DNA of 64,000 bases from Deltaproteobacteria bacterium (GTDB taxonomy: Bacteria > Myxococcota_A > Polyangia > Fen-1088). The translations under genes and the position numbers were made by a program. Of this stretch, positions 14,726 through 28,293 are shown in pieces (within the stretch, counting starts at the first letter, position 1; the number at the start of each line of letters is the position of its first letter). The notes beneath the pieces are model-generated. The model was not told the origin of the DNA. It searched no databases and was given only the letters and a program-made list of their open reading frames with translations. The stretch is from NCBI GenBank assembly GCA_033763315.1, contig JANRKS010000007.1:160001-224000 (forward strand), written 5' to 3'.

Positions 14726-14764
14726 TCTATCCCCTCGAAGGCGCGTTTGATCACGTGTTCGACT

Positions 14765-14864
14765 CGGCAGGGTGAAATGAAATTCCCCCCCAAGACCGAC
14801 GGCACCAACTAAAAACGTGTGCATCGCGCGCCCAGATCGCTGAGGTTCAAAACCTGCGCCGTTC
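14765..14864 (+). repeat. Degenerate ~100-bp direct repeat, copy 1
   Basis: cggcagggtgaaatgaaattcccccccaagaccgacggc...gcatcgcgcgcccagatcgctgaggttcaaaacctgcgccgttc aligns by eye at roughly 80% with 22945-23042. Confidence 0.85.
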
Positions 14865-15375
14865 ACTCGTTCCGATTTACGAGCGACGCGCGCCAGAATC
14901 AACGCTGCTGGAAGGGGATACTGGAGCTCCTTGGAGAAAACGTCTTCGCGCCTACATTGGCGACAGCGCGGGCGCCGCCAAGCGACGAAGCCGACTGGTA
15001 GCAGGGTGTGTTGGCGGAGAGTCAATGGTGGCGAAGCAGGGCCGGCGATGGCCAAGGGATACGTCTGTCCCGTGGACTAAAATAGGCGCAGAATCCTTGT
15101 TTTCTCTGGGTGGAACGAAGTTTACGGAAGGGACGTTATCGGTCCCTTGAAGCGCTTTGCCTCAATGGTTGCCCTCATGACGCAGGCGCAAATGCAGCTT
15201 TGAAACGCCTATGCTCTTCATCGTCCTTTTCGCGTGGGTCAGATGCAGCTTGAGTCCCCGAGCTCTCATCTTCGTTCTTTTTCTTTCGCGACACATGCCA
15301 GGTTCGCGCGTCAAGTTGGCAACGGTTCAGGAATGAAAGGGCAAGGGAGCCCTCCGTAGACACAAGGAAAAGAAC

Positions 15376-16500
15376 ATGCACAGTAGATCAATTGCCAGAT
15401 TCTTATGCGGAGCGGCTTCGATTTCGATGCTCGGAAGTTTCTCCTTTCAAGCACAAGCTCGAACAGTGCAAGGCGTTGATCGCGACGGTGATGGACGAGC
15501 AGACGTGGCCGTTTACCGTCCATTAAACGCTCGATGGTTTGTCACGATATCAAACGGCGGTGAGAGCAACGAAGTATTTGGAAACAAAGGAGATATCGCT
15601 GTGCCAGGTGACTATGACGGTGACGGCAGAACAGACCTCGCGGTCTTCCATCCTTCGAATGGCTTCTGGTTCATCAATCACTCGTCGGGCATTGCACCGA
15701 AAGCCAAACAATGGGGGCTATCCGGGGATGTGCCAGTGCCAGCGGACTACGACGGCGATGGCAAGACGGATCTTGCGGTCTATCGTCCGTCTTCCGGCTA
15801 CTGGTACCTGATCAATTCAAGGAGTGGTCTAAGCGAATCACGTGGTTGGGGGCTTTCAGACGACGTACCACTTCCTGGCGACTACAATGGAGACGGACGT
15901 TTTGACTTTGCTGTGTACAGACCATCACTGGCTCAATGGCACATCCTGCTCAATGGAAGCGCACAGACGATCTTTTCAATATGGGGAGATGCTGGCGATG
16001 TTCCGGTGGTCGCAGATTTCGACGGCGATTGGGTAACTGATACGGCCATCTATCGCCCAAGGGATGGGTACTTCCATATCAAGCTTGCAAGCGGACTGCG
16101 CCAATACCGATTCGTTGGAGCAAACCAAATACCCATCGTCGGCGACTATGATGGCGACGGCAAGGCTGACCCCGCTGTTTGGAACACGCAAACCAGCCTC
16201 TTCACGATCAGCCTGATGGCAACGAACGTGATGAAGACGGAAGTCCTAGGGTTTAATGACTTCACGGAGTACGGCCGAGATGTCCCGCTTGTTTCCACTC
16301 TCTATGCTCAGCAAAGCGTTCCGAGGATCGCTTTAGCGCAAGGGACTTGGTGTTGTGCGTCCTGTAGCCCGGATGGCAAGACTTGCGGACTATGCCAGGT
16401 AAAGCCTGGTACAGGATTGTGTCCAACTGGGACCAAAACAAAAACCGGAGACTGCGAGTCGACGGATGATGGAGACTTTTTAGACCTGACTTGTAGATGA
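15376..16500 (+). CDS. Secreted FG-GAP/VCBS-repeat beta-propeller protein with Cys-rich C-terminal tail
   Basis: Signal peptide (AQA), six DxDGDGxxDxAVxRP-type repeats, 8-Cys tail. Visibly lower GC than the flanks. Confidence 0.88.
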   Translation: MHSRSIARFLCGAASISMLGSFSFQAQARTVQGVDRDGDGRADVAVYRPLNARWFVTISNGGESNEVFGNKGDIAVPGDYDGDGRTDLAVFHPSNGFWFINHSSGIAPKAKQWGLSGDVPVPADYDGDGKTDLAVYRPSSGYWYLINSRSGLSESRGWGLSDDVPLPGDYNGDGRFDFAVYRPSLAQWHILLNGSAQTIFSIWGDAGDVPVVADFDGDWVTDTAIYRPRDGYFHIKLASGLRQYRFVGANQIPIVGDYDGDGKADPAVWNTQTSLFTISLMATNVMKTEVLGFNDFTEYGRDVPLVSTLYAQQSVPRIALAQGTWCCASCSPDGKTCGLCQVKPGTGLCPTGTKTKTGDCESTDDGDFLDLTCR

Positions 16501-16715
16501 TCAACAATTCTCATCTGCCACAGAAATGTGGCTCAAGGTCGCTGCGACGATCTCTGCATGGGTCGCGCATCCCCCCTCAGAAACTGCAGTCGAGGTGTGG
16601 CCATTGACGGCCTGTCTCTCCTGACAAAAACAAGTGCGGCGGCAGTTTGTGCTGCGCATGGTTCTTAGCTCGTTTCTCACCACATTCAGAAGTTCTCAGA
16701 TCAAAGGTATCTCAT

Positions 16716-18683
16716 ATGAAGAAGACTCAATGGATTTTCACTATCCTTCTGATGGGGATTCCCTTCACTTTTACCTCGCTGGGAATCGACAAACCTACGG
16801 TAGCAGCAGAGCCGGCTGCTGCAGAACCTGCAGGTCCCTTTGAAAAAGCCTGGGCTGTCCTCACGAAACTCAAATCAGACCTCGATCCATGGATCGATGC
16901 GGCCAGCTATGCCAAAAAGTTGATTGAAAAGTTTTACGGGGTACCAACAGAAATCGAGCTAGCTCGAGATGAAATCATTGCCGAGATAAAGAACACCCAG
17001 ATTACACGGCTGGAAGGAACGATAATCGGAATGCTCAATAACTTCGCCGATGTTGTCCGTGATCCCAATAACATGCACAACAGCTTTCAGCTTAATCTCA
17101 TCAAATCTCAAGCAGATCTGGTGCTCGGCGAAATGCAATCGTTGATAGAAAGACGTGATTCGGTTTCTGTGAAAGAGCTTGCCGTCGCGAGCAATCTCGC
17201 CACAGCCGTTGGCGCTGCGGCCCGAAAGCTTCTTGGTATGGAGTCCGCGATTTCTCCCCTTCTCCAGCGACAGATGGATATGAACTATTCGGTTGTAGGT
17301 GTTGATTCTTACTATGTGAATAGGTCCGCAGTGCGAGACTCTGCGGGCTCCAGCTTGCTGTGGTCCGTGATCGATACGCCAGCGTTTTACTGTGATAGCA
17401 CGGAGGCACGGGCTGAACTTGCTAACAAGCGCATTATAACCCTACACTCCCCGCCAGGCGGAACGATCGCGAATGCCGTTTATTGCAAGCACAAGGATGG
17501 AAAGTGCTTCGCGTATTACAAGGACCCAAGTCCGATCGCAAATGGCCTTGCGGAGGGAGTGGGAAGTCCCAAAACAACATTTCCAATATGCTGGAAAGAA
17601 ACGCACTCGCGAGCATTGAGAGCCTTCGATGATAATCCGACGGTCAAGGCCATCAAAAAGGCGATGCAGCAATCATATTTTTCAGGATACAGGCCATCGG
17701 CGATATCAGGACCCTTCATCATTAGCGGATGTCTGTCAAAGGCGGCAAATTCAATTCTGGACTTCGACGGTGATTGCACGAGCGATCTCGCTGTTTACCG
17801 CCCAGGGTACACTAGTTCCTTCGAAGTTCTTCTGAGTCGGACAGCGAGCTTCAATTCCACCTCAATGCCTCTCGGTGGCTACAACGACCTTCCTGTCCCA
17901 GGGGACTACGATGGTGATGGAAAATCAGACGCCGCCGCTTATAGGATCGCAGACGGTCTGTGGTCGATAGCCCCTAGCTCCGGCGCTGCGCCGTACTCGC
18001 GGGCATGGGGGCTAGAAGGAGACACACCCGTTCCTGCTGACTACGATGGTGACGGAATGACCGACATCGCGGTCTACCGGCCTAGCAATGGCCATTGGTA
18101 TGTTTGGCCGAGTGGTGGTGGCGATAGATATGCGGTGCCATGGGGGCTGAGCACGGACATTCCAGTCCCCGGCGACTACGATGGCGACGCGAAAGCAGAT
18201 TTCACGATTTGGCGCCCAGGGGATGGCAATTGGCACGTGCGTCCTACATCAGGAGCGGCGCCATACGCAGTTCAGTGGGGGCTCCAAGGTGATCATCCAA
18301 TCCCACGAGATTTTGATGGCGACGGACGACTTGACTTTGCTGTTCGCAGGGACGGTCAATATGGCGTTTACGTAATGCCAAGTAACGGAGGAAGCAGATA
18401 CTTCGTGGCGTTTGGGAACCCAGACGACATTGCCGTTCCGGCTGACTTTGATGGCGATGGGAAGGCGGACCAGGCCGTTTGGCAAAGAGCCAAAGCATTT
18501 TGGTGGTACAAAAGGAGCACGGGAGGGGATCGAGTCCCCTACGACTCTAATTGGGGGCGCTCACCGCCTCCAAATTGGGAGCCCGTGAATCCGACTATCG
18601 GTCGACAATGGGGAACGAACCGAGATTTCCCCCTTGGTTCGCAGCTTCACGGAAACTTCTCCTGGGCCGGCGTATTTAGGTAG
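16716..18683 (+). CDS. Secreted protein: helical N-terminal domain plus C-terminal FG-GAP/VCBS repeats
   Basis: Start at MKKTQW with signal peptide; six PGDYDGDGxxD-type repeats in the C-terminal half. Confidence 0.88.
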   Translation: MKKTQWIFTILLMGIPFTFTSLGIDKPTVAAEPAAAEPAGPFEKAWAVLTKLKSDLDPWIDAASYAKKLIEKFYGVPTEIELARDEIIAEIKNTQITRLEGTIIGMLNNFADVVRDPNNMHNSFQLNLIKSQADLVLGEMQSLIERRDSVSVKELAVASNLATAVGAAARKLLGMESAISPLLQRQMDMNYSVVGVDSYYVNRSAVRDSAGSSLLWSVIDTPAFYCDSTEARAELANKRIITLHSPPGGTIANAVYCKHKDGKCFAYYKDPSPIANGLAEGVGSPKTTFPICWKETHSRALRAFDDNPTVKAIKKAMQQSYFSGYRPSAISGPFIISGCLSKAANSILDFDGDCTSDLAVYRPGYTSSFEVLLSRTASFNSTSMPLGGYNDLPVPGDYDGDGKSDAAAYRIADGLWSIAPSSGAAPYSRAWGLEGDTPVPADYDGDGMTDIAVYRPSNGHWYVWPSGGGDRYAVPWGLSTDIPVPGDYDGDAKADFTIWRPGDGNWHVRPTSGAAPYAVQWGLQGDHPIPRDFDGDGRLDFAVRRDGQYGVYVMPSNGGSRYFVAFGNPDDIAVPADFDGDGKADQAVWQRAKAFWWYKRSTGGDRVPYDSNWGRSPPPNWEPVNPTIGRQWGTNRDFPLGSQLHGNFSWAGVFR

Positions 18684-18765
18684 AACGTCGCCGACACCGT
18701 TGTGATTTGCTGTTGGTCGCCATTTGAAACCTACTCGGGGCCTCCATGTCAGGGGCCGATCTTTC

Positions 18766-19541
18766 GTAAGCGTTCAGGCCCCCGAAAAAGTTGTCAAAAT
18801 CGAATGCCTGACGATTTGCTAAGAAAGGGGATCGACAGCAGATCGCAAACGTGATCTACCTTGGTCGTTGGACGACAAGGCAAAGATCGCAGAGCTCACG
18901 GCGCAGCTGCTGGCCAAAGACGTAGTGATCGAGGAGCTGCGGCAGGAGATCGTTGAGCTCAAGGGTGTGGTGGCTGAGTTGAGGGCGCTGGTGGCCGATT
19001 TGACCGAGAGGCTTGGCCAGAACTCTCGCAATTCACACAAGCCGTCGTCAAGCGATGGCCCCGGCGCCACCAGGAATTCGGGCAAGCCTAAACACGGCTC
19101 CGATCGGAAGCGCGGTGGCCAAAAGGGCCACCGCGGCCGCCATCGTGAGCTGCTGCCCGCAGATCAGGTCGACGCTGTAGTGGATGTGTTCCCATCGCAT
19201 TGCGAGGGGTGCGCGGTGCGCGGAGCCGCTGCCACCGATTCCTGACATGCAAGCCGCACGCAGGTGACCGAGGTGCCACCAATAAAGCCTCACACGACTG
19301 AATATCGCCAGCATGCGGTGACATGCCCATGTTGCGCGCACTCCACGCGCGCCACGGGCGCCGGCATCATTCCAAGATCCCCGTTTGGCCCGCGTTTAAT
19401 GGCCCTGGTGGCCTTGCTTAGCGGCGTGTACCATCTGAGCCGCCGTCGCACAGTGCAGGCGCTGCACGACATCCTAGGCGTGCGCATTTCGTTGGGCGCC
19501 GTCAGCGCTGTTGAAGCACGTGTTAGTGATGCGGTTAAGCA
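18766..19541 (+). mobile_element. IS66-family element remnant (single-TnpC type), truncated
   Basis: Terminal GTAAGCGTTCAG at 18766. TnpC motifs: coiled coil, QNSRNSHKPSSSD, KRGGQKGHRG, CEGC...CPCC zinc finger, SPFGPRLMALVALLSGVYHLSRR. The DDE domain and right end are absent. Confidence 0.88.
18868..19541 (+). pseudogene. IS66 transposase TnpC pseudogene (frameshifted, truncated)
   Basis: A 7-bp tandem duplication gtgcgcg at 19209-19222 shifts the frame, and a second shift occurs near 19258. Similarity ends at ...VEARVSDAVK. Confidence 0.85.
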
Positions 19542-19570
19542 TAGAGCGTGTCCCAATGCGACGTTAGGAA

Positions 19571-19657
19571 CGCATCGACAGCAACGGCATCCTGCGCTTC
19601 GACATGATCAACGGCTTGGGCGAAACCGTGTACAGCTTGCAACTGGCTCCGCCATAA
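19571..19657 (+). pseudogene. Orphan C-terminal gene remnant (resembles the end of a PhoD/metallophosphatase-type protein)
   Basis: RIDSNGILRFDMINGLGETVYSLQLAPP* with coding-like codon usage right after the IS break. The family call is weak. Confidence 0.35.
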
Positions 19658-19686
19658 TTTCGGTGGGTAGAGCTGCGGACAGGGGT

Positions 19687-20028
19687 TCATGCCGTGACGA
19701 ACTCCCACGCGTGGAACAGCTTGGCTTCCTCCTTCGGCGAGAACGCCAAGAGCGGCGAGGCTTCGTGGTACGCGCTAAATCGAGCCGCGGCGCTGTTCGG
19801 ATCGAGCTGCCAATCCGCGCGATACTCTTTGCTGCCGCGGAGTAAACGCTCGAAGCGCAGTCGCGCCACAAGTAGTGCACTCATGCGCAACCCATCTGTG
19901 TTTATGGCGGCCAAAGCCGCGCGTAGCGGATGCTGGTCGTCCAACGCCTTGATCGCCGATGCAAGCGCGCCCTGCGGATCGCGCGCTCTCAGCACATGTA
20001 CAAGGATGTTTTCGTAGTCATCCATCAT
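19687..20028 (-). CDS. Small DUF692-associated partner protein (HvfC/DUF2063/SCO6045-like by position and motif)
   Basis: 12 bp downstream of DUF692. Helical, with an F-x-x-Y-x4-P...E-A-x-x-F-x-x-W ending reminiscent of MNIO partner proteins. Confidence 0.7.
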   Translation of the reverse strand: MMDDYENILVHVLRARDPQGALASAIKALDDQHPLRAALAAINTDGLRMSALLVARLRFERLLRGSKEYRADWQLDPNSAAARFSAYHEASPLLAFSPKEEAKLFHAWEFVTA

Positions 20029-20040
20029 AGATGGCTTCCT

Positions 20041-20928
20041 TCATGCCGCTTGCTTCACCACACACGATCGCAGGCGCCGCATTTCTTCTCGAAGCAGGCC
20101 CACGTCAGAGTCCGCGATGGTGCCCTCCATGCGTTCCAAAACGATCGCGCGCAAATGCGAGCATCGAGGCAATGCGACGTCGAGCAAACGCCACACCTCA
20201 GGCGGAATAGGGCCATCGTGGCCATCCAAACGCAGGCTGCGGCCGCCAGGCAGCCAACGTGGATCAGAATCAGTGCCGCCGGCCATATGGATTTCGATCA
20301 CTTGGTCAAGCGGCAGTGCTGCAAGGTACTCCTCTGCATCAAACCCAAGATTGCTGGCCATCGCGAACACATTCGCCAAATCCAACAACAGCCGCCGACT
20401 TGGGTTCTGCAGAACGCTGCGAATGAATGCCGGCTCATCCAACGGGTTGCCGCACACAAAATGCGATGCTGGGTTTTCGATGCCCACCACGGGCACAACT
20501 GTACTCATCTCATCAAGGCGCAAGCGAACGCATTCCGCTGCTTCCGCCGTCATAGGCAACGGCAACGGAAGCGCCGTATTCTGGCCTGCAGGCGCCGTAA
20601 TGCCCAGATGATCTGTGTACCAAAGAAACTGGAACAGGGCCTGATCACGGGCCATTGCAGCTCTCCACTGTGCGCGGCGATACACCTCCGCAGCGCTGCC
20701 ACCTCCGCCAACCGAATAGCCAACACCGTGGGCAAGAAACCTCTGCCCACTGCGCCTTCCCATGCTTAAGAACAAGGCATGATAGTCGTTCGTATGCAGT
20801 CGCCCTTCTACTTGCTGCCACAACGTTTCGGGTGCCACTTCAAAGATATCGGGCTCTTCTTCGAGGAAGGCCCCCAAGATGTCTAGCGTCGCTTCATCGG
20901 GTGGCAACACGAAGCCTACCGGGATCAT
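20041..20928 (-). CDS. DUF692 family multinuclear non-heme iron oxidative enzyme (MbnB/TglH/ChrH family)
   Basis: FEVAPE, HGVGYSVG, TDHLG, GIEN, LLLDLANV, EIHMAGG, DGH...PPEVW, VLER: the expected iron-ligand motifs in order. Confidence 0.92.
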   Translation of the reverse strand: MIPVGFVLPPDEATLDILGAFLEEEPDIFEVAPETLWQQVEGRLHTNDYHALFLSMGRRSGQRFLAHGVGYSVGGGGSAAEVYRRAQWRAAMARDQALFQFLWYTDHLGITAPAGQNTALPLPLPMTAEAAECVRLRLDEMSTVVPVVGIENPASHFVCGNPLDEPAFIRSVLQNPSRRLLLDLANVFAMASNLGFDAEEYLAALPLDQVIEIHMAGGTDSDPRWLPGGRSLRLDGHDGPIPPEVWRLLDVALPRCSHLRAIVLERMEGTIADSDVGLLREEMRRLRSCVVKQAA

Positions 20929-21737
20929 TGGTGTCCCTCCGGCTCGAGTCTTACGTTGAACGGAGCCAGCGGCCGGCCTGCGAAGAGCACGTTGTTATCT
21001 GCTGTGAAAACCAAACTTTCGGCTGAGCCCGTTTGCACAACACAACCGGCTTGATCAATAACCTCCACATTTCCGCTGGCATCAAGGCGGACGATGTTAT
21101 TGCCTTGCATGTGCAGGCCTACCCAAGCCGTAAGCTGTCGCGCCCGCTCGGAGGATGGTTCCTGCACCGGCTGAACCTCGCTGCTCACCGGCAAAGCAGG
21201 TTCTGCTTTCGAAAGCTCGACGAGAGCGAACGCAACATCCGCATTCTCAGGCAGCGCTGCCCATGCGCTCCGCATTAGCATCTGGGGCCCCTCAAGCTGA
21301 ACCGCATTGCCGAACCCCAGCGGCATCACGTGGCTGGCTGATAGTGCTTTCGCGAGTTCGGTCAACACCGCCGGCTGCGCGTCAACGAGGATGGCGTCGC
21401 TGCGAACGTCTTGGTCAATGACGAACCGCTGCAATGACAAAGCGGCCTCCTCTGCAGACGACGACGGTGCGTGCCAGGATGCTTTCCACACAACGCCACC
21501 TTGACCCCACAGGCGCTCGCGTTTTCCGTTAATCCTTGTTTCCACGGTGTCTTCGATCGGATCAAATTCCACCAGTAACCCCGACGTCACGGGCATCTGG
21601 TTTACCCATAAGGCTTCAGCTTTCCGCGTGGCCTCGTCCACGAGCACGTAGCTCGAGCCATGCATGGCAGCGTCGCCGCACCCAACGTGCAAAAGCAGCG
21701 CTGCGATCACCGGCAGGCAAACAATGTTCCTATTCAT
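20925..21737 (-). CDS. Hypothetical lipoprotein in the DUF692 operon
   Basis: MNRNIVCLPVIAALLLHVGC lipobox. Its stop overlaps the DUF692 start (ATGA), and its start overlaps the upstream stop. Confidence 0.75.
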   Translation of the reverse strand: MNRNIVCLPVIAALLLHVGCGDAAMHGSSYVLVDEATRKAEALWVNQMPVTSGLLVEFDPIEDTVETRINGKRERLWGQGGVVWKASWHAPSSSAEEAALSLQRFVIDQDVRSDAILVDAQPAVLTELAKALSASHVMPLGFGNAVQLEGPQMLMRSAWAALPENADVAFALVELSKAEPALPVSSEVQPVQEPSSERARQLTAWVGLHMQGNNIVRLDASGNVEVIDQAGCVVQTGSAESLVFTADNNVLFAGRPLAPFNVRLEPEGHQ

Positions 21738-22767
21738 TCGTTCCCCTTTCGTCCTGGGAGTCAAATGTTAAGAAATCGAGGATGCGCCGGCTGCGGGCTG
21801 GCACGTGGCCCATGCCGCAGGCGAACCCAAACATCGAATCATCCTTTTCACCAGGCAGCCATTCGATGTCCAAGCCACACCCGTTTGCTTGAGCCCAACG
21901 GCTTCCCGCAATACGGCGGTGGCAGAGCGCCATGCGCGAGGCCTCCGCCACGAGATGCGTCAGCCTGCCGCGTTCACTGCCCTGCGCGGCATAACTTTGT
22001 GCAAGCAGCGACGCGGCTGCCGCTAGAACCACATCGGCAAGCTGTGGGTTGGTTGCAACTTCGTTGGCTGTGATCGCCTGCGCCTTGAGAAACGTGTTCG
22101 CTCCGTTGTGGGTGCCCAGCTTGTTTCTTGCCTGATCCGCGCGCACCAGAAGCGCATCTTTGGATGGAGTCAAGCCTTTGTTCAGCAACTCTGTCAGTAA
22201 GCGAATTCGCAAAGAGATGAGCTCATCTTGTTTACGCTCCCGACGTGCGAATGCCGGGGCCCAGTCCTTCTCTGAACTATCACCTTCCAGCTCCACATCG
22301 TATGGGTCTGGTAAGGTGACATCAAGGTTTGTGGTGCGGGCAGGCAAGGCTTCAGTTTCGATGAGCACCATCAACGGATCGTTCGACGATGGCGGTGTTT
22401 GTGGTGCCAATCTGTTGATCGCGAACATCGGAGCACAAACAACCTCGCACAAACCGAGCAAGGCCAACGCTTCATCCCCGCCGTGGTTCAGCAACTCGCC
22501 GAACGCGTGAGCGCGCCCCCAATCGTGTTCTTTCGCAACGAAAACCAGCAGCGGCTTTCCCACTGCGGCTGCGCGTGCAAAGGCGGCTGAAAGAAGCTGG
22601 TCCCAACGCAGTGCTTGCATAAATGCCCGCGCTGGCTTTGCCTTGCCGCCAGGGCAGGCCTCATCAGCAAACGCTGCTCGAATCCAAATCGGAATCGCCA
22701 GCGCCGCCGCCGACTTAACAAACGCGCGGCGTGCAGCATGCCTTCCAAGTCGCTCCCTAGCCTTCAT
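21730..22767 (-). CDS. Tat-exported hypothetical protein with C-terminal GCG...CGMGH motif
   Basis: ARRAFVK twin-arginine motif, AFA cleavage site, GGAGGT RBS upstream, thioredoxin-like AFARAAAVGKPLLVFV segment without CxxC. Confidence 0.8.
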   Translation of the reverse strand: MKARERLGRHAARRAFVKSAAALAIPIWIRAAFADEACPGGKAKPARAFMQALRWDQLLSAAFARAAAVGKPLLVFVAKEHDWGRAHAFGELLNHGGDEALALLGLCEVVCAPMFAINRLAPQTPPSSNDPLMVLIETEALPARTTNLDVTLPDPYDVELEGDSSEKDWAPAFARRERKQDELISLRIRLLTELLNKGLTPSKDALLVRADQARNKLGTHNGANTFLKAQAITANEVATNPQLADVVLAAAASLLAQSYAAQGSERGRLTHLVAEASRMALCHRRIAGSRWAQANGCGLDIEWLPGEKDDSMFGFACGMGHVPARSRRILDFLTFDSQDERGTNE

Positions 22768-22944
22768 AGTGACCTCCGGTGAACGGGCCTACAATAGTGA
22801 AGAGACAACCGTTCGACCCTTCGGTTTCACTAGAAGGTCAAAATATGAGGAGCTACGATGGGCCTTTAATCGCTGGTGGCGGCCTCGTCAGTGGCAGTGC
22901 TGTTCGCACGCGATGGATATGGAGGGGTGCTGGAGGCACGGCGC

Positions 22945-23042
22945 CGGCAGGGTGAAATGAAATCCGTCCCAAGACCGACGGTATCAATTGAAACGAGTGC
23001 ATCGCGCGCCCAGGTCGGCGACGTTCAGAACCCGCGCCGTTC
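22945..23042 (+). repeat. Degenerate ~100-bp direct repeat, copy 2
   Basis: cggcagggtgaaatgaaatccgtcccaagaccgacggt...gcatcgcgcgcccaggtcggcgacgttcagaacccgcgccgttc matches 14765-14864. Confidence 0.85.
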
Positions 23043-23321
23043 GATCGGCGCAACTGAAGCTCGCCAAACCTTGCCACCCGGCCTTGCTTTGGCCCGAGCC
23101 CTCTGATCGCATGACGTACACCGAACTTCTATGGACATGCTGTTTCTGGTGCCTCTCTCGACCAGGAACTCGTCTTCGCCGCAGCGCAAGCAATCCTCAA
23201 GCTCATGATGTTGCTCCAGCTGCTCCCCAAGGGCTCGCCAGGGCGCGATGCCGGCACGAAGCGATCTTTGACGTCCCACGGGGATCGCGCCGATCCCATT
23301 TTGGGCTTGTAAGTGCGGCAA
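23025..23321 (-). CDS. Possible small zinc-ribbon protein (start uncertain)
   Basis: CLRC-x20-CTSC spacing typical of Zn ribbons. The stop lies inside repeat copy 2. Confidence 0.35.
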   Translation of the reverse strand: MPHLQAQNGIGAIPVGRQRSLRAGIAPWRALGEQLEQHHELEDCLRCGEDEFLVERGTRNSMSIEVRCTSCDQRARAKARPGGKVWRASVAPIERRGF

Positions 23322-23354
23322 TTGGGCCGTGCGCTTGTAGGCATGGCCAATGCA

Positions 23355-24029
23355 ATGAAAAGCAGCATGAAACGCATCGAAGCTCTTTTAATCGCCCTGT
23401 TATCATTCCCCTTGGTGGCTGCGGACGGCGGAGGCGGTTGCGGCGAGCATCAACCTGGAAATGGCGACTCAAGGACGTGGACCACCGGTGTGCTTCCGCA
23501 GGCGGAAGGCACGCCGCAACCAATGTCAGCACCGTGGCTCAGTGGACCCAATTGCTGGAAGGATTTAGTGGCTGCGGCTCAAGCTTGTCTGCGCACCCCG
23601 CAGGCCTTCGGCGCTTTTGATGAGCGTCGCCAAACATGCAGTCTTTCTGGCGGTGGTCGACTGGAATTGGCAGGGCCGATCTCGACGCCCGCCGAGGATT
23701 CTAGAATCTATGTCGCGACCGATTGGCGCCTGTGGGGACCGCACGGGCGTGTATGTGTCACGGGAAAGCTATTGGCGGCCAATCGTTCGGTGGTAGACGT
23801 CGAGGGAAAGTCCGCGTTGTTTGAAAGTTCCACACTGACGGCGTACGGTGTGACGTGCCCGGACGGACGTACGTTCCGAAATGACATCGACGGAGTGGAT
23901 CCCACTTTCGGCGCGTTGTGGCTTGCTGGAAGGGCACCAGGGGTGGTGTTCGAGTGCAAAGGCAAGACCTGTACGATGAGTCTAAAGGGCGGCGCGGCAG
24001 GGGATACGCCCATCGCCTCGTGCCAATGA
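23355..24029 (+). CDS. Secreted Cys-containing hypothetical protein
   Basis: Hydrophobic signal followed by ADGGGGC; several paired Cys. Confidence 0.7.
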   Translation: MKSSMKRIEALLIALLSFPLVAADGGGGCGEHQPGNGDSRTWTTGVLPQAEGTPQPMSAPWLSGPNCWKDLVAAAQACLRTPQAFGAFDERRQTCSLSGGGRLELAGPISTPAEDSRIYVATDWRLWGPHGRVCVTGKLLAANRSVVDVEGKSALFESSTLTAYGVTCPDGRTFRNDIDGVDPTFGALWLAGRAPGVVFECKGKTCTMSLKGGAAGDTPIASCQ

Positions 24030-24280: not shown

Positions 24281-25348
24281 GTGCCACACGCAGTTCCCCG
24301 CGCACTTGTTCACTTCCACATATACCTTGCGTTCTTGGTTGCTTGCTCGTCAGGACCCAACGAACAAAGCGAGGATCATCCAATAGACGACGCGTCCGAC
24401 GACAACGGCGGGTCGATGGCTTCAGCCGGGGGCGCGGCCGGCCCACGGAACAGCGCTGGGGTTTCGGGGCAAGAGGGTGGAGACGGTGGGCACGCTGCAA
24501 GTGGTGGCGCTGCTGGTGCCAGTGGGATCATCGGAACGGGCGGCAACCCAGGCTCAGGGGGAGCAACCGCCAACACGGGCGGCCTGGCCGGGGGCTCAAC
24601 ACAAGCCCCCTGGCTAACGTTGCCGGCGCGAAGCGTGGGTTGTGGAAAGGCTGCCAAGGGCACCGGATCCTATGTGCGCCAAGATATGCAAGTCGCGGCT
24701 AAGGCCCGGGCAAACTTTCTTTGGCTTCCCTTAAATTACGACCCCACCAAAGCGCATGAGCTTCTAATTTCACTACATGGGACGGGCGGCGTGGCGCCGG
24801 GCGATGGCAAAGGGATCGAAACTGCGGCGGGCAACGAAGCCATCATCATGACACCGCAAGGTATTGATGGGATGTGGCAGCTGGGCGCTGACGGAGAAGA
24901 CGTTGCGTTCTTTGATGCAATGTATGCTTTTGCAACCGAGAACTTCTGCGTGAATCAGCAGCGTGTGTTTGTTACAGGCTTTAGCCTGGGTGCAGCGATG
25001 TCGAATTTGTTGGGCTGTGTTCGCGGCGACAAAATTCGCGGCATTGGTCCCCTTGCGGGATGGCAACCTGCACGACAAACGGATTGCCGTGGGCGGCCCG
25101 CCGCATGGTTTGCGCATGGAACGTCGGATGGCGCCGTTCCCATCGTTCAAGGAACGCGTTCCCTCGGTTTGCAGATGGTCCGCAACGGATGTGAAGCGGC
25201 CACCGCGCCAACGCCGCCGTCGCCTTGTGTTGCTCAACAGGGCTGCGATACGGGATCACCTGTTGTGTGGTGTGAAATTCCCGGAGATCACGGCACCCCT
25301 ATTGAATGGTCGGTGCCCGCGCTGTGGAAATTTTTCGCCGCCCTATAG
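24281..25348 (+). CDS. Lipoprotein esterase (PHB-depolymerase/feruloyl esterase, LpqP-like alpha/beta hydrolase)
   Basis: LVAC lipobox, Gly-rich linker, SVGCGK, LHG, TGFSLGA nucleophile elbow, HGTSD, GDH. Confidence 0.88.
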   Translation: MPHAVPRALVHFHIYLAFLVACSSGPNEQSEDHPIDDASDDNGGSMASAGGAAGPRNSAGVSGQEGGDGGHAASGGAAGASGIIGTGGNPGSGGATANTGGLAGGSTQAPWLTLPARSVGCGKAAKGTGSYVRQDMQVAAKARANFLWLPLNYDPTKAHELLISLHGTGGVAPGDGKGIETAAGNEAIIMTPQGIDGMWQLGADGEDVAFFDAMYAFATENFCVNQQRVFVTGFSLGAAMSNLLGCVRGDKIRGIGPLAGWQPARQTDCRGRPAAWFAHGTSDGAVPIVQGTRSLGLQMVRNGCEAATAPTPPSPCVAQQGCDTGSPVVWCEIPGDHGTPIEWSVPALWKFFAAL

Positions 25349-25932
25349 CGATCCATGCGGAAGCGACGCTATGTTGAAGGTTTTCGTTTCAGAGCAAACC
25401 ACCTGCCCGTCCTTATGGAGCTTCACCGTGGTGCCATCGTGGCGATCAAGGCGAGCAACCAAAGTGCAAAGGTGTTGCGCTGCATGAGGAAACCGCAGTG
25501 TTGGGCGTAGGTCGCTTCGCCATAGTGAAGTGGCCGCCGATCATGGGCTGCGTCCACCGCAGCCTCGTACTCATCCACGATTTGTGCGGTTCGCGCGAGG
25601 GTGCATGTGATCAGCAACGCACGCCCGCCTTAGGCGGTGACCACCACAGTGAAGCCCTTTCGGCAGCGGGGCCAGGCACTTATTTCGTTGGCTCCCCCGA
25701 CTTTCGTGCCGAGTTGCGCCGCAGGTTCGCCGGGATCCGCAACCTTCCTATGTCGTGACAGGCAACGCTGCCGTGCCTGGCACCAGGTTGTTTCAACTTG
25801 GCAAGCCTTGGGAACATCAGGGGAAGATCCAAAAACGTCTCCGTTCTTGTCGCTGTGGTCAAAAGCGCCGAATCGCGCCGCATGTGATTAGGCAGCGTGG
25901 TTGCGGCACCGGTCGGAACGGAAGGAGACAAC

Positions 25933-28293
25933 ATGGTACTTGCGAGGTTGAAGGCTTTAGCGAAGGTTGTTTCGCTGGCGGCGTTGCTATCCCCCATAGG
26001 TTGCGGGGACCAGCCGAGGCAAACGCCCGGCCAACCCGGCGAAACAGCTGCGTTGGCGTTGGCTCTGACGTTGCCGGACGGCAGCGACATTGCAAACGTG
26101 CAATACAATATTGTGGGTGGGCTTTTGCCATCGCCCATTTCAAACACGATTCCTGTGCCACAATCGAACTCGAAGATCACCGCCCTTGTTTCGGTGCCTG
26201 CAGGGAGCAACTACCTTTTGGCTCTGTTCGCGCGGTCAAACACTGGAACGACGTGTGAAGCGGAGGCAAATTTCAACATCGTCGCGGGCCAAACCACCAA
26301 CGTGGGTGTGGTGCTGGCGTGCCACGAAGGCCCTCGAAATGGAACGCTGGTGATCAACGGGCAACTTGATCAATGTCCTGTTATCTCGTCGTTGTCGGCG
26401 CAACCCATCTCAGCCGCTGTTGGTGAAAATGTATTCTTGAATTCAACTGCCTCAGACGCTGATGGCGATGCGTTGACGTACGCGTGGACGGCCATCGGTG
26501 GCACCCTTGCCAACCCAAGCGCCGCCGACACAACATTCACCTGCACATCGGCTGGAATGGCACAAGTTGCACTTACCGTCAGCGACGGCCGTCCCGCTTG
26601 CAACAAGCGTGAATCGTTTGCGATTGATTGTGTTTCAGGGGGCGTGGCCATCACAGCGCCTTCTTTTGCAGTGCTGTCCTCAGGCGTAACAGCCGCAGAA
26701 GCTGCGTTGCTAAAGGCGGCATTCAACTTGCCAGACCTCGCGGTAGACCAAAATGGCGTAGCGCGCTTTGCTGATGAAAACACATTCCTAGCTGTTCCAA
26801 CTCAGCCGTTCGCACAGTTGCCGACCAACGATCCACCCAACGAAGAAGGGCAACCGCCCCTGTATGAAGCCTTCAATTTTGAAGAAATCAAGAAGATCCA
26901 AGTGATCGAGCCGAGAGCCGCTGAGCAACTTGCAGCCAGGGCGCTGCTTTCATCTGACCTTTTGCCAGCAGGCGCGTTTCCGGTGTCGCAGCACACTCGG
27001 TTTGAAGCTGTTAGCAAAGACGGCGTGGTCTTGACAAGCCAGCCTATCGACACATCTGTCTCCTACGGATTCTTGTTGGGGAACTACAGCTTGGAAGGCC
27101 CAGGCGCGAAGATCCGCGTGGCATACGACGGCAGCGGAAAAGTCACGCAGTTCATCTTCTCGTCACGCAAACTTGCTCCTGGCCCTGAGGTTGCTGTTCT
27201 CAACAACGCTGACGCCGCAAAACGCTGTCTGGCATGGACAACACAACCGGGTACGGGAGAAGGCCGCGTGGCCAAAGCTTCGTTGGCCTATTTTGCGCCA
27301 CCACTTTCCGAGAAGGTTCAACAAATTGAGCCCAGTTTTCGGTGCGAGATTCGCGAGCGCAATGGTGCGGTTGGCCAGGTGTACTTCGTGCCGGCAAGCG
27401 TTTCCGCACGACCGCCTGTTTTCAATTTGCCGCAAGACCCGCGGCTGGGCGGCCCTAGCATGATGCCTACGCCAGCCGCGGCACGTCCCGTGGCCACGCG
27501 CGCCTTCGATCTTGCAAAAGATCAACCAAACAGGAGCCTTCTGTTTAGCCAGGCCACAACACCGTCGCCATCGCTCTCGGTCAGCAGGATTGATGTGGGT
27601 AGCGAAGGCACGGGCGTGTGCTCGGGCTTGCCGAACACCGTGGCGAACGTCCAAGGCTTTAATGCACGAATGGGGCTCGCCGGCGTGCCCACGCAGTTCA
27701 CATGGTTTGACAACAACGCATGGGAGGACGATTGGAAAGACCCATCGAAGGGCGGCAACGATTCAACGTGGGTCGACGATGTCGACATGACGTACTGGCA
27801 AGGCCACGGATGGCCCGATGGCTTCTCGTTTAGTGGCTGCAGCTCAAATGACGACAGCAGCTTGACGTACAACGACGCTGTTTGGGGCAACAAGGATGCC
27901 GAATGGATGTCGCTGTTCACATGCTTGGTGTTGAACACCGGCACTCCCGGCAACTACTGGTACCAGCGGTGGGGCCGCGCCTTCCACGGCTTGCACCAAA
28001 TCAACAGCTTCGAAACCGTGTCGTACCATAGCTCGCAACATGGCCAGATCTACGCTGGTTATCTGACTGGTGTTCCTTGGTTCTGGTGGATCAATCCAAT
28101 GAAGGTTCGTGTTGCTTGGGCGCAGGCGTCTATTGACGACCAACCCGCCTCGGTGATTTGGGCAACCATGGGACCCATCAGCAACGGCTCGTGGATGAAC
28201 TTCAACGACCACTTCTGGGGCAAAGGTGCGGTTGGGCCTGACATTCCCGCGAATCAGATCGCCGGGTACTGGCGAATCTTCGGCGGCTCGTAG
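25933..28293 (+). CDS. Lipoprotein with PKD/Ig-like domain and C-terminal DUF6345 (caspase/gingipain-like) domain
   Basis: AAGGAG RBS, PIGC lipobox, SDADGDALTYAW, DDVDMTYWQGHG...WGNKDAEWMSLFTCLVL...WGRAFHGLH. Confidence 0.8.
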   Translation: MVLARLKALAKVVSLAALLSPIGCGDQPRQTPGQPGETAALALALTLPDGSDIANVQYNIVGGLLPSPISNTIPVPQSNSKITALVSVPAGSNYLLALFARSNTGTTCEAEANFNIVAGQTTNVGVVLACHEGPRNGTLVINGQLDQCPVISSLSAQPISAAVGENVFLNSTASDADGDALTYAWTAIGGTLANPSAADTTFTCTSAGMAQVALTVSDGRPACNKRESFAIDCVSGGVAITAPSFAVLSSGVTAAEAALLKAAFNLPDLAVDQNGVARFADENTFLAVPTQPFAQLPTNDPPNEEGQPPLYEAFNFEEIKKIQVIEPRAAEQLAARALLSSDLLPAGAFPVSQHTRFEAVSKDGVVLTSQPIDTSVSYGFLLGNYSLEGPGAKIRVAYDGSGKVTQFIFSSRKLAPGPEVAVLNNADAAKRCLAWTTQPGTGEGRVAKASLAYFAPPLSEKVQQIEPSFRCEIRERNGAVGQVYFVPASVSARPPVFNLPQDPRLGGPSMMPTPAAARPVATRAFDLAKDQPNRSLLFSQATTPSPSLSVSRIDVGSEGTGVCSGLPNTVANVQGFNARMGLAGVPTQFTWFDNNAWEDDWKDPSKGGNDSTWVDDVDMTYWQGHGWPDGFSFSGCSSNDDSSLTYNDAVWGNKDAEWMSLFTCLVLNTGTPGNYWYQRWGRAFHGLHQINSFETVSYHSSQHGQIYAGYLTGVPWFWWINPMKVRVAWAQASIDDQPASVIWATMGPISNGSWMNFNDHFWGKGAVGPDIPANQIAGYWRIFGGS

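Follow-up and report, generated by a model that had tools for sequence, protein, structure and literature searches.

What does an MNIO (DUF692) enzyme act on when its operon holds no short precursor peptide? The question is raised by four minus-strand genes, here called A to D, in a stretch of 64,000 nucleotides (the window; Deltaproteobacteria bacterium of the Polyangia, GenBank assembly GCA_033763315.1, contig JANRKS010000007.1, positions 160,001 to 224,000, numbered below from its first letter). An earlier note, made from the letters of this DNA, had proposed that the enzyme (C) and a small partner (D) modify cysteines of protein A before A leaves the cell by the twin-arginine translocation (Tat) pathway. 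We followed up this proposal by comparative genomics and structure prediction. Sequence comparison supports A as the likeliest substrate of the MNIO, with the cysteines of its GCG and CGMGH motifs as a conserved MNIO-linked element, and gene order and conservation make it probable that A, C, and D make up a three-part cassette for protein modification. The genes are the following.

Gene A, 21730-22767, minus strand: exported protein of 345 residues, the proposed MNIO substrate (from the list of open reading frames).
Gene B, 20925-21737 from its ATG, minus strand: orphan protein of 270 residues (279 from an upstream TTG).
Gene C, 20041-20928, minus strand: MNIO (DUF692) enzyme of a separate clade, 295 residues.
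Gene D, 19687-20028, minus strand: all-helical protein of 113 residues, the putative MNIO partner subunit.

The arrangement described in the earlier note was confirmed at these coordinates. In the raw sequence, A and B overlap by 8 bp (ATGAATAG), B and C overlap by ATGA, and 12 nt separate C from D. A carries a signal peptide, and C and D have none. As first described, the operon contains no peptidase, no exporter, and no short Cys-rich precursor, which was borne out both by the list of open reading frames (ORFs) and by a scan for small ORFs. A promoter and terminator scan of 19300-23400 gave no more sites than shuffled sequence did, and a search of sequencing runs returned no RNA run and only two DNA metagenome runs, with 5-9% of the words.

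To see which of the four genes belong together, we turned to 29 related loci obtained from a scan with one genome per species (L and G labels denote loci and genomes of this analysis). They came from metagenome-assembled genomes (MAGs) of Polyangia and other Myxococcota, the Minicystis rosea chromosome, many Planctomycetota MAGs, one MAG labelled Acidobacteria, and one labelled Pseudomonadota. At 24 of the 29 loci, including those of Minicystis rosea and the Acidobacteria-labelled MAG, A was followed on the same strand by C and then D, with C homologues 43-56% identical within the clade and with stop and start codons that mostly overlapped or nearly touched. Four of the five exceptions (L010, L017, L026, and L027) lie on contigs that end inside or within 100 bp of the A-like ORFs, L010 being the locus of the Pseudomonadota-labelled MAG, which terminates within the A gene; the fifth, L030, is a partial match to the N-terminal domain of A only. 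Between one and six tandem copies of A stand ahead of a single C-D pair, and C and D are fused in frame at three of the 24 loci (L007, L021, and L028).

Nothing else accompanies these genes consistently. When the ORFs of at least 70 residues were clustered, none recurred at more than about five loci, shadow frames of A, C, and D aside, and there was hence no conserved copper, redox, or transport gene beside the cassette. Among ORFs of 18-75 residues lying within 700 bp and outside coding sequence, none was conserved, except between two near-identical loci. The earlier note had allowed for a true short precursor elsewhere; the sequences support the absence of any conserved one near the cassette.

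The reverse comparison, made in 401 genomes of the window's phylum, gave A in 13 genomes and D in 13; 12 genomes had both, with the two genes at adjacent coordinates. In the genome with A only (G187), an MNIO directly follows the A copies and is cut by the contig end. Together with the 24 loci, these counts bear out the co-occurrence of A with this DUF692 clade on which the original proposal depended. The genome with D only, G135 (L035, G135:C127), contains only decayed pieces, namely residues 216-276 of C, interrupted by one in-frame TGA, and a D gene that is broken; the A query used detected no A-like gene there. Other low-scoring MNIOs of the phylum were considered as possible clade members without A, and four were checked and rejected: their identity to C does not exceed 34%, and neither A nor D lies close to them.

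Next, we looked at the part of A in which the modification was proposed. The C-terminal text of A quoted in the earlier note, with its two Cys, is exact: Cys297 stands in NGCG and Cys317 in ACGMGH (G-F-A-C-G-M-G in its wider context), within the pattern GSRW-x5-C297-G-x19-C317-G-M-G-H-V-P-x4-R-R-I-L-x-F, the end of which reads V-P-x4-R-F-L-x-F in the family. For counting, 55 full-length A-like ORFs from the loci and the window were used out of 61; the six excluded were the contig-cut ORFs of L010 and L026, a tail-less ORF of L017, two fragments of L030, and an overlapping ORF of L021. All 55 copies have the anchor Cys of C-G-[MTR]-[GAS], 49 have the upstream Cys as well, and in 16 a third one stands directly before RFL. 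The Cys of CGMG was also present in 199 of 202 database relatives, the exceptions being one SGMG and two unrelated tails, and it lies 18-45 residues (median 22) from the C terminus. The two Cys are usually 17-31 residues apart, and 20 apart in the A of the window. Conservation of GCG...CGMGH, a point on which the original proposal turned, therefore holds for its cysteines, and the residue at the position of His321 varies (F, M, Y, R, S, T, and others).

Five of the 55 copies (L013, L017, L021, L025, and L029) carry a CPxCG[M][GA] motif, in the form CPPCGMG, CPGCGMA, or CPPCGMA, and all five lack the distant upstream Cys. Every copy thus seems to offer two Cys, either 3 or 17-31 residues apart, and from these sequences two Cys would seem always to be required. 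Two A-like paralogues from one genus (L036, G038:C146, and L037, G192:C87) lie elsewhere in their genomes, and no MNIO or D gene was present within some 3 kb of them. The Tat signal is preserved in both, as are the thioredoxin-like and helical parts described below, and they end in ...GSKWIIPATEG... with no Cys motif.

Protein A belongs to a large family without a name. Like B and D, it matched no Pfam or NCBIfam model. A word-indexed search returned 66 homologues, and a profile search of 1.84 billion representatives yielded 972 clusters at 50% identity with E ≤ 0.001, of which 837 remained at E ≤ 1e-10 and 502 at E ≤ 1e-30; the matches listed are 229-357 residues long and bear no family name. 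Searches for stand-alone tails of 30-188 residues (query residues 262-345) and for fused forms of 624-2000 residues (alignment query) gave no candidate, both being word-limited, weak searches. The following parts can be distinguished in A.

Tat-type signal peptide, residues 1-34, 22666..22767, minus strand: RRAF, a hydrophobic stretch, Pro26, Arg30, and AFA.
Thioredoxin-like alpha/beta domain, residues about 50-165, 22273..22620, minus strand: predicted from the AlphaFold2 model and structural comparison.
Variable helical region, residues about 169-282, 21922..22263, minus strand: from the alignment and the secondary structure of the model.
C-terminal Cys tail, residues 286-333, 21769..21912, minus strand: proposed modification site.

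The signal contains RRAFVK at residues 13-18 (RRAF at 13-16), a conserved Pro26, Arg30 in the c-region, and AFA at 32-34. In an alignment of 30 homologues, R13 and R14 were conserved in at least 90%, and 192 of 202 relatives have an RR-hydrophobic motif among their first 60 residues. The genome also encodes TatC (203 bits). The Tat call on A is based on motif conservation. These features bear out the Tat signal that had been assigned to A, and the sequence supports its export by this pathway.

The AlphaFold2 model of A (pLDDT 86, pTM 0.82) suggests that its core is a thioredoxin-like fold. The alpha/beta domain has the conserved features GKPLLV, FGELLNHG, and an invariant Cys111. Structural comparison by VIA-align placed 3fk8_A at the top (Z 7.4, rmsd 3.0, 114 residues aligned), with thioredoxin folds in nearly all of the 50 rows, although Z values below 8 may mean merely a common arrangement. 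ESM Atlas leads for A were Thioredoxin_2/7 at 0.79-0.82, Pfam Thioredoxin_7 matched one of 30 relatives (E 0.023), and Foldseek against the PDB gave nothing at E ≤ 0.001 for either A or D. A thus resembles Thioredoxin_7 and DsbD-gamma-like proteins in the predicted fold of residues about 54-200 and in export to the envelope, but differs from them in this sparse Pfam match, in an extra helical region and the Cys tail, and in lacking the CxxC active site: the position reads K-E-H-D-W-G-R-A, and none of the 30 aligned relatives has Cys there. The helical region is largely deleted in relatives of about 250 residues, such as the Minicystis rosea protein. Invariant columns of the 30-sequence alignment are P72, L74, G90, C111, and P131 in the N-terminal domain and G288, W291, C297, E302, C317, G318, M319, G320, R328, and L330 in the tail.

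The assignment of C to the DUF692 enzymes was confirmed by a match to Pfam PF05114 (MbnB_TglH_ChrH) with E 2.9e-35 and 122.2 bits against a cut-off of 25 (121.9 bits in a genome-wide search with this model). Its ligand motifs are intact, as had been claimed: none of H67, D106, H107, E151, D183, N186, H214, D235, H237, D238, and E265 varies among 24 clade members, and in an alignment with TglH (PDB 8hci) they fall on conserved positions. These His, Asp, Glu, and Asn positions of the TIM barrel are candidate metal ligands, with MbnB and TglH as the structures in which such residues bind iron. With NCBIfam models, C reached 99.5 bits for BufB, 98.8 for HvfB, 97 for ChrH, and 54 for ApyH; these scores are far below the cut-offs of 310-600, and C therefore falls in none of those equivalogs. 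Five further clade members scored 99.5-121.6 bits with the ChrH model, in alignments that end at position 264-286 of 363, and for two of the five ChrH was the best NCBIfam match.

A second MNIO of the same genome lies on another contig (L001, G000:C8:153994-157773) and scored 365 bits to PF05114. Upstream of it is a 108-residue signal-peptide protein of KGSCKGKDGCKG repeats (L001:1056-1382), and downstream is a 293-residue DUF2063 protein. This is a separate, complete oxazolin/bufferin-type system with its own precursor and DUF2063 partner.

Protein D was proposed as the partner of the MNIO, and this was supported by the three C-D fusions, the gene order at the 24 loci, and its predicted structure. 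The AlphaFold2 model of D (pLDDT 97) is entirely helical. In a VIA-align comparison with 48,161 chains, the top three matches were solved MNIO partner proteins, i.e., MbnC (7dz9_C; Z 6.0, rmsd 3.2, 80 residues aligned), TglI (8hci_C; Z 4.8, rmsd 3.7, 109 aligned), and NGO1945 (3dee_A; Z 4.7, rmsd 2.5, 64 aligned), and a second MbnC (7tcr_C) ranked tenth. The best hit of a PDB profile search with D was a TetR-type regulator at E 0.069, and DUF2063 was matched by one of 23 D homologues, at E 0.16. Model and sequence together support D as an MNIO partner subunit in a minimal form, without a domain of the RRE type (RiPP recognition element, where RiPPs are peptides made by the ribosome and modified after translation). 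Being short, encoded after the MNIO gene, free of DUF2063 and RRE, and matched at ranks 1-3 by known partners, D fits the PME-type 2 partners, for which the available part of Antoine et al. 2025 (PMC12452194) gives an example of 115 residues. Two other views of D were discarded. A PME-type 1 protein (DUF2063 plus RRE, about 250-260 residues) is ruled out by the 113 residues, the all-helical structure, and the lack of a DUF2063 signature. Truncation of D by the IS66 remnant that lies 3' of it was rejected, since the homologues, aligned over residues 5-108, stop at similar lengths, and D is full length relative to 22 homologues.

The earlier note had stated that this architecture matches no characterised MNIO pathway, a claim that is now outdated. 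According to the available part of a PNAS paper of 2026 (PMC13056109), ChrH/DybH-type MNIOs act on a CPACGMG (CPxCGxG) motif, where a four-electron oxidation draws on the second Cys and the Gly-Met-Gly backbone to produce a macrocycle and a hydantoin. At their C terminus these enzymes bear a bundle of helices of about 7.8 kDa; Cyanobacteria encode it separately, as the small protein MelHc. The substrate MelA1, a 34-kDa secreted tetratricopeptide repeat (TPR) protein that ends in CPACGMG, showed a shift of -4 Da only with both MelH and MelHc. The similarity network in the same part of that paper mentions small Myxococcota and Planctomycetota clusters without a description.

The A-C-D cassette has several features in common with MelA1/MelH/MelHc, from a Melainabacteria MAG, as far as that source goes. 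In both, the substrate (here, the proposed one) is a secreted protein of more than 30 kDa rather than a peptide, the site lies near the C terminus and consists of C-G-M-G plus a second Cys, and the substrate gene stands directly upstream of the gene for an MNIO without a signal peptide, which is joined by a small helical protein, encoded separately here and in relatives as one chain with the enzyme. There are also differences. MelA1 is a TPR protein with a signal of the signal-peptidase-I type (SignalP, per the paper), whereas A has a Tat signal and a thioredoxin-like core. CPACGMG of MelA1 is at the very end, whereas the motif of A is embedded 18-45 residues from it, with Cys that are usually 17-31 residues apart. 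C belongs to a separate clade, and D has no sequence similarity to the C-terminal extension of the ChrH type. From these comparisons, the system is most likely a large relative of MelA1-type protein modification that differs in its Tat signal, its fold, its embedded and wide-spaced motif, and its enzyme clade.

The relation of the enzymes was examined with a comparison set of 80 metagenome loci in which CPACGMG is encoded just ahead of a stop codon. An MNIO gene lay just downstream at 59 of the 80, and its product was 22-35% identical to C. There were 55 complete ORFs, 53 of them distinct, comprising 48 long forms with a C-terminal extension and 5 short ones. The short forms (L039, L041, L072, L095, and L115) have 289-328 residues and lack the C-terminal helical extension, which fits the split MelH/MelHc form. 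In a quick maximum-likelihood tree with 66 rows, made up of the 24 clade members, the 5 short forms, 22 of the 48 long ones, and 15 of the phylum's 30 canonical MNIOs, the C clade lay on one side of a branch with SH-aLRT 86 and was not nested in the CPACGMG-linked group. CPACGMG-linked and canonical MNIOs are 4.8-5.1 apart in the same tree. As the tree has three groups and is unrooted, it neither demonstrates nor excludes a sister relation. Judged by sequence, C is a third, separate MNIO clade, and its resemblance to the ChrH type is one of substrate motif and architecture.

These observations can be combined into a mechanism. C and D would form a cytoplasmic complex that oxidises the C-terminal tail of newly made A before export, the target being Cys317 of the invariant C-G-M-G plus a second Cys, here Cys297, 20 residues upstream. 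A would fold around its thioredoxin-like core and be exported by Tat, the signal probably being cut after AFA34. Tat exports folded proteins post-translationally; as no competition with Sec arises, a minimal partner may be enough and masking of the signal would be unneeded. We consider this favoured reading, in which C and D modify the tail cysteines of A before Tat export, to be likely from gene context and motif conservation. Of the original proposal, the substrate, the partner, and the Cys motif have stood, through comparative genomics only, and its docking step (see below) and its novelty as a pathway have not.

By analogy with ChrH, DybH, and MelH, the likeliest chemistry would be a four-electron oxidation (-4 Da), in which the sulfur of the first Cys is linked to the second Cys and a hydantoin is formed from the C-G-M-G backbone; a ring closed in the A of the window would span about 20 residues rather than 4. 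We put such chemistry on the tail of A at a little less than an even chance. A bolder idea, which we regard as doubtful, is that a Cys-derived macrocycle or heterocycle inside the folded thioredoxin-like protein, joining Cys about 20 residues apart, replaces the lost CxxC centre as a redox or metal site and is exported via Tat only. If true, this would be an MNIO-made, protein-derived cofactor in a family of roughly a thousand sequence clusters, and recognition would go through the folded domain of the substrate rather than through an RRE-bound leader peptide.

A number of results weigh against the favoured reading or limit it. The case for modification of A is built wholly from gene context and conservation. 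C could not be placed in the ChrH subfamily (MNIO_ChrH 97 bits against a cut-off of 600, much as for BufB and HvfB), and in the tree its clade stands apart, at a mean distance of 3.3-3.6 from the CPACGMG-linked MNIOs and of 3.8 from the canonical ones. The structural Z values of D are low (4.7-6.0), so that the weight rests on the ranks, and hhalign gave a probability of only 0.39% for D against the C-terminal extension of 32 CPACGMG-linked enzymes and of 0.24% against the genome's own DUF2063 protein. Pfam TAT_signal matched only 5 of 30 relatives of A (best E 0.0039) and not the A of the window. The N-terminal domain of A is conserved as strongly as the tail, which indicates that A is more than a peptide carrier. 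In the AlphaFold2 model the tail forms beta-strands within the fold, predicted with high confidence apart from residues 311-320, and access of the enzyme would then have to come before folding. Finally, the two orphan paralogues without Cys motif are from one genus and count as one event. Prediction of a complex of C, D, and residues 262-345 of A gave 0.09, 0.60, and 0.19 in three runs, against a mark of 0.32 and with no controls folded, and counts neither way.

The docking step of the original proposal concerned B, to which exported A was suggested to bind as to a lipoprotein. The signal peptide of B ends in an imperfect lipobox, L-L-L-H-V-G-C, with His at -3. No homologue of B was found by tblastn in any of the 29 loci, and ESM Atlas gave no usable look-alike, all structure rows having TM < 0.35. 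Docking of A on B fails on this count. By its sequence, B is a lineage-specific insert or passenger, coupled to A and C but outside the conserved cassette.

Could the same cassette and substrate perform another chemistry? Bufferins and oxazolins (BufA/B/C, HvfA/B/C) resemble it in having an MNIO and a partner that act on conserved Cys of exported products, in their few core genes, and in precursor genes multiplied beside a single enzyme pair. In a reaction of that type, Cys317 and perhaps Cys297 would become a 5-thiooxazole or an oxazolone-thioamide and, with Met319 and His321, yield a periplasmic copper binder. C scores as high with BufB (99.5 bits) and HvfB (98.8) as with ChrH (97), Met and His follow Cys317, and in the available part of PMC12452194 the bufferins and oxazolins are exported copper binders whose Cys targets stand in C-G contexts such as EGKCG. 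The same source describes, for bufferins, a loss of mass per Cys and absorbance at 305 nm. Nevertheless, we think this unlikely. The invariant C-G-M-G corresponds to the residues consumed in the ChrH/DybH reaction (PMC13056109, available part), five A paralogues carry the full CPxCGMG motif, His321 is not conserved, the loci have no conserved DoxX, copper, or DUF2063 gene, and D is not of the DUF2063+RRE kind. As described in the same part of PMC12452194, bufferin and oxazolin precursors have a Sec signal and many Cys, whereas A has a Tat signal and one to three conserved Cys, and their partners are DUF2063+RRE proteins of about 260 residues, often with DoxX, in contrast to 113 residues and no DoxX here.

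It is also conceivable that A is not a substrate at all and serves as a periplasmic thioredoxin-like accessory or receptor, with unmodified Cys that bind metal or form a disulfide, and that C and D act on a peptide encoded elsewhere or on a small molecule. A is a well-folded protein of two domains, its N-terminal domain is strongly conserved, the model integrates the tail into the fold, and modification of A is deduced. Such a role is quite improbable, however, as C and D are cytoplasmic and A is exported, and it is difficult to imagine how they would work together unless A is modified. Conservation extends to no other gene or small ORF, the tandem amplification of A resembles that of RiPP precursors, A has lost its Cys tail precisely where no MNIO is present, C and D have decayed where A is absent, and the tail bears the motif of a proven MNIO substrate family.

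Modification of A by C and D remains the favoured reading, and its setting in the literature can be outlined as follows. New peptide chemistry is emerging rapidly from the MNIOs, and the modification of a whole protein has only just been shown, for MelA1 in 2026; it had already been proposed by Antoine et al. (PMC12452194). To MelA1 the cassette adds a large, unnamed family of candidate substrates, with its 972 clusters, in Myxococcota and Planctomycetota. In the available part of PMC12452194, most substrates have a Sec signal and partners of the DUF2063 type, large proteins suggested to mask that signal, and signal-less substrates go with PME-type 2 partners. D resembles PME-type 2 proteins, TglI, MbnC, and NGO1945 in following the MNIO gene directly, in lacking DUF2063, and in the similarity of its model to the N-terminal helical domain of the last three; it differs in being without any RRE-like part and in its association with a Tat signal on A, whereas PME-type 2 is tied there to substrates without a signal. 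As Tat would require no masking, a minimal partner is consistent with the pairing rule, and a Tat signal with a minimal partner would both fit the logic of that rule and widen it. The series of motifs from CPxCGMG to C-x17-31-CGMG inside the same gene clusters predicts rings far beyond the known macrocycle of four residues. The main text of PMC12452194 contains no Tat, twin-arginine, Planctomycet-, Myxococc-, or thioredoxin wording, and 'Minicystis' is absent from the stored part of its supplement; a literature search for MNIO with twin-arginine or Tat, Planctomycet-, Myxococc-, or Polyangi- found no paper describing the A family.

That the cassette in this genome is a recently acquired, possibly non-functional passenger on a small island is highly improbable: direct repeats of about 100 bp bracket 14764-23042 with low-GC FG-GAP genes, an IS66 remnant, and the operon, and B, unique to the window's locus, is wedged between the substrate and enzyme genes, but the four ORFs are intact, D is full length when set against its 22 homologues, the invariant residues of A, C, and D are all present, and the overlapping stop and start codons argue for co-translation.

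The repeats themselves, at 14764-14880 and 22945-23042, are 85% identical over about 100 bp and occur at only these two places in the 7.6-Mb genome. The roughly 8.2 kb between them hold two FG-GAP genes, the IS66 remnant, and the operon, with a GC content of 0.52 at 16-18 kb compared with about 0.60 elsewhere, and this span may be a small acquired island. The remnant is a broken IS66-family transposase on the plus strand (18868-19245 and 19264 to about 19560) that matches DUF6444 in its N-terminal part (E 2.4e-15) and, weakly and in a second frame, zf-IS66 (E 0.0037); about 130 bp separate its end from the stop codon of D. Just upstream of A, 23025-23321 on the minus strand is an ORF of 98 residues with two CxxC pairs (CLRC...CTSC) and no Pfam match. 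It is not conserved upstream of A at other loci, overlaps plus-strand ORFs, and may not be a gene. Further along, 25897-28293 on the plus strand encodes a protein of 798 residues with a PKD/Ig-like domain and a C-terminal DUF6345 domain (E 5.6e-76), beside which 24281-25348 encodes a weakly esterase-like protein of 355 residues.

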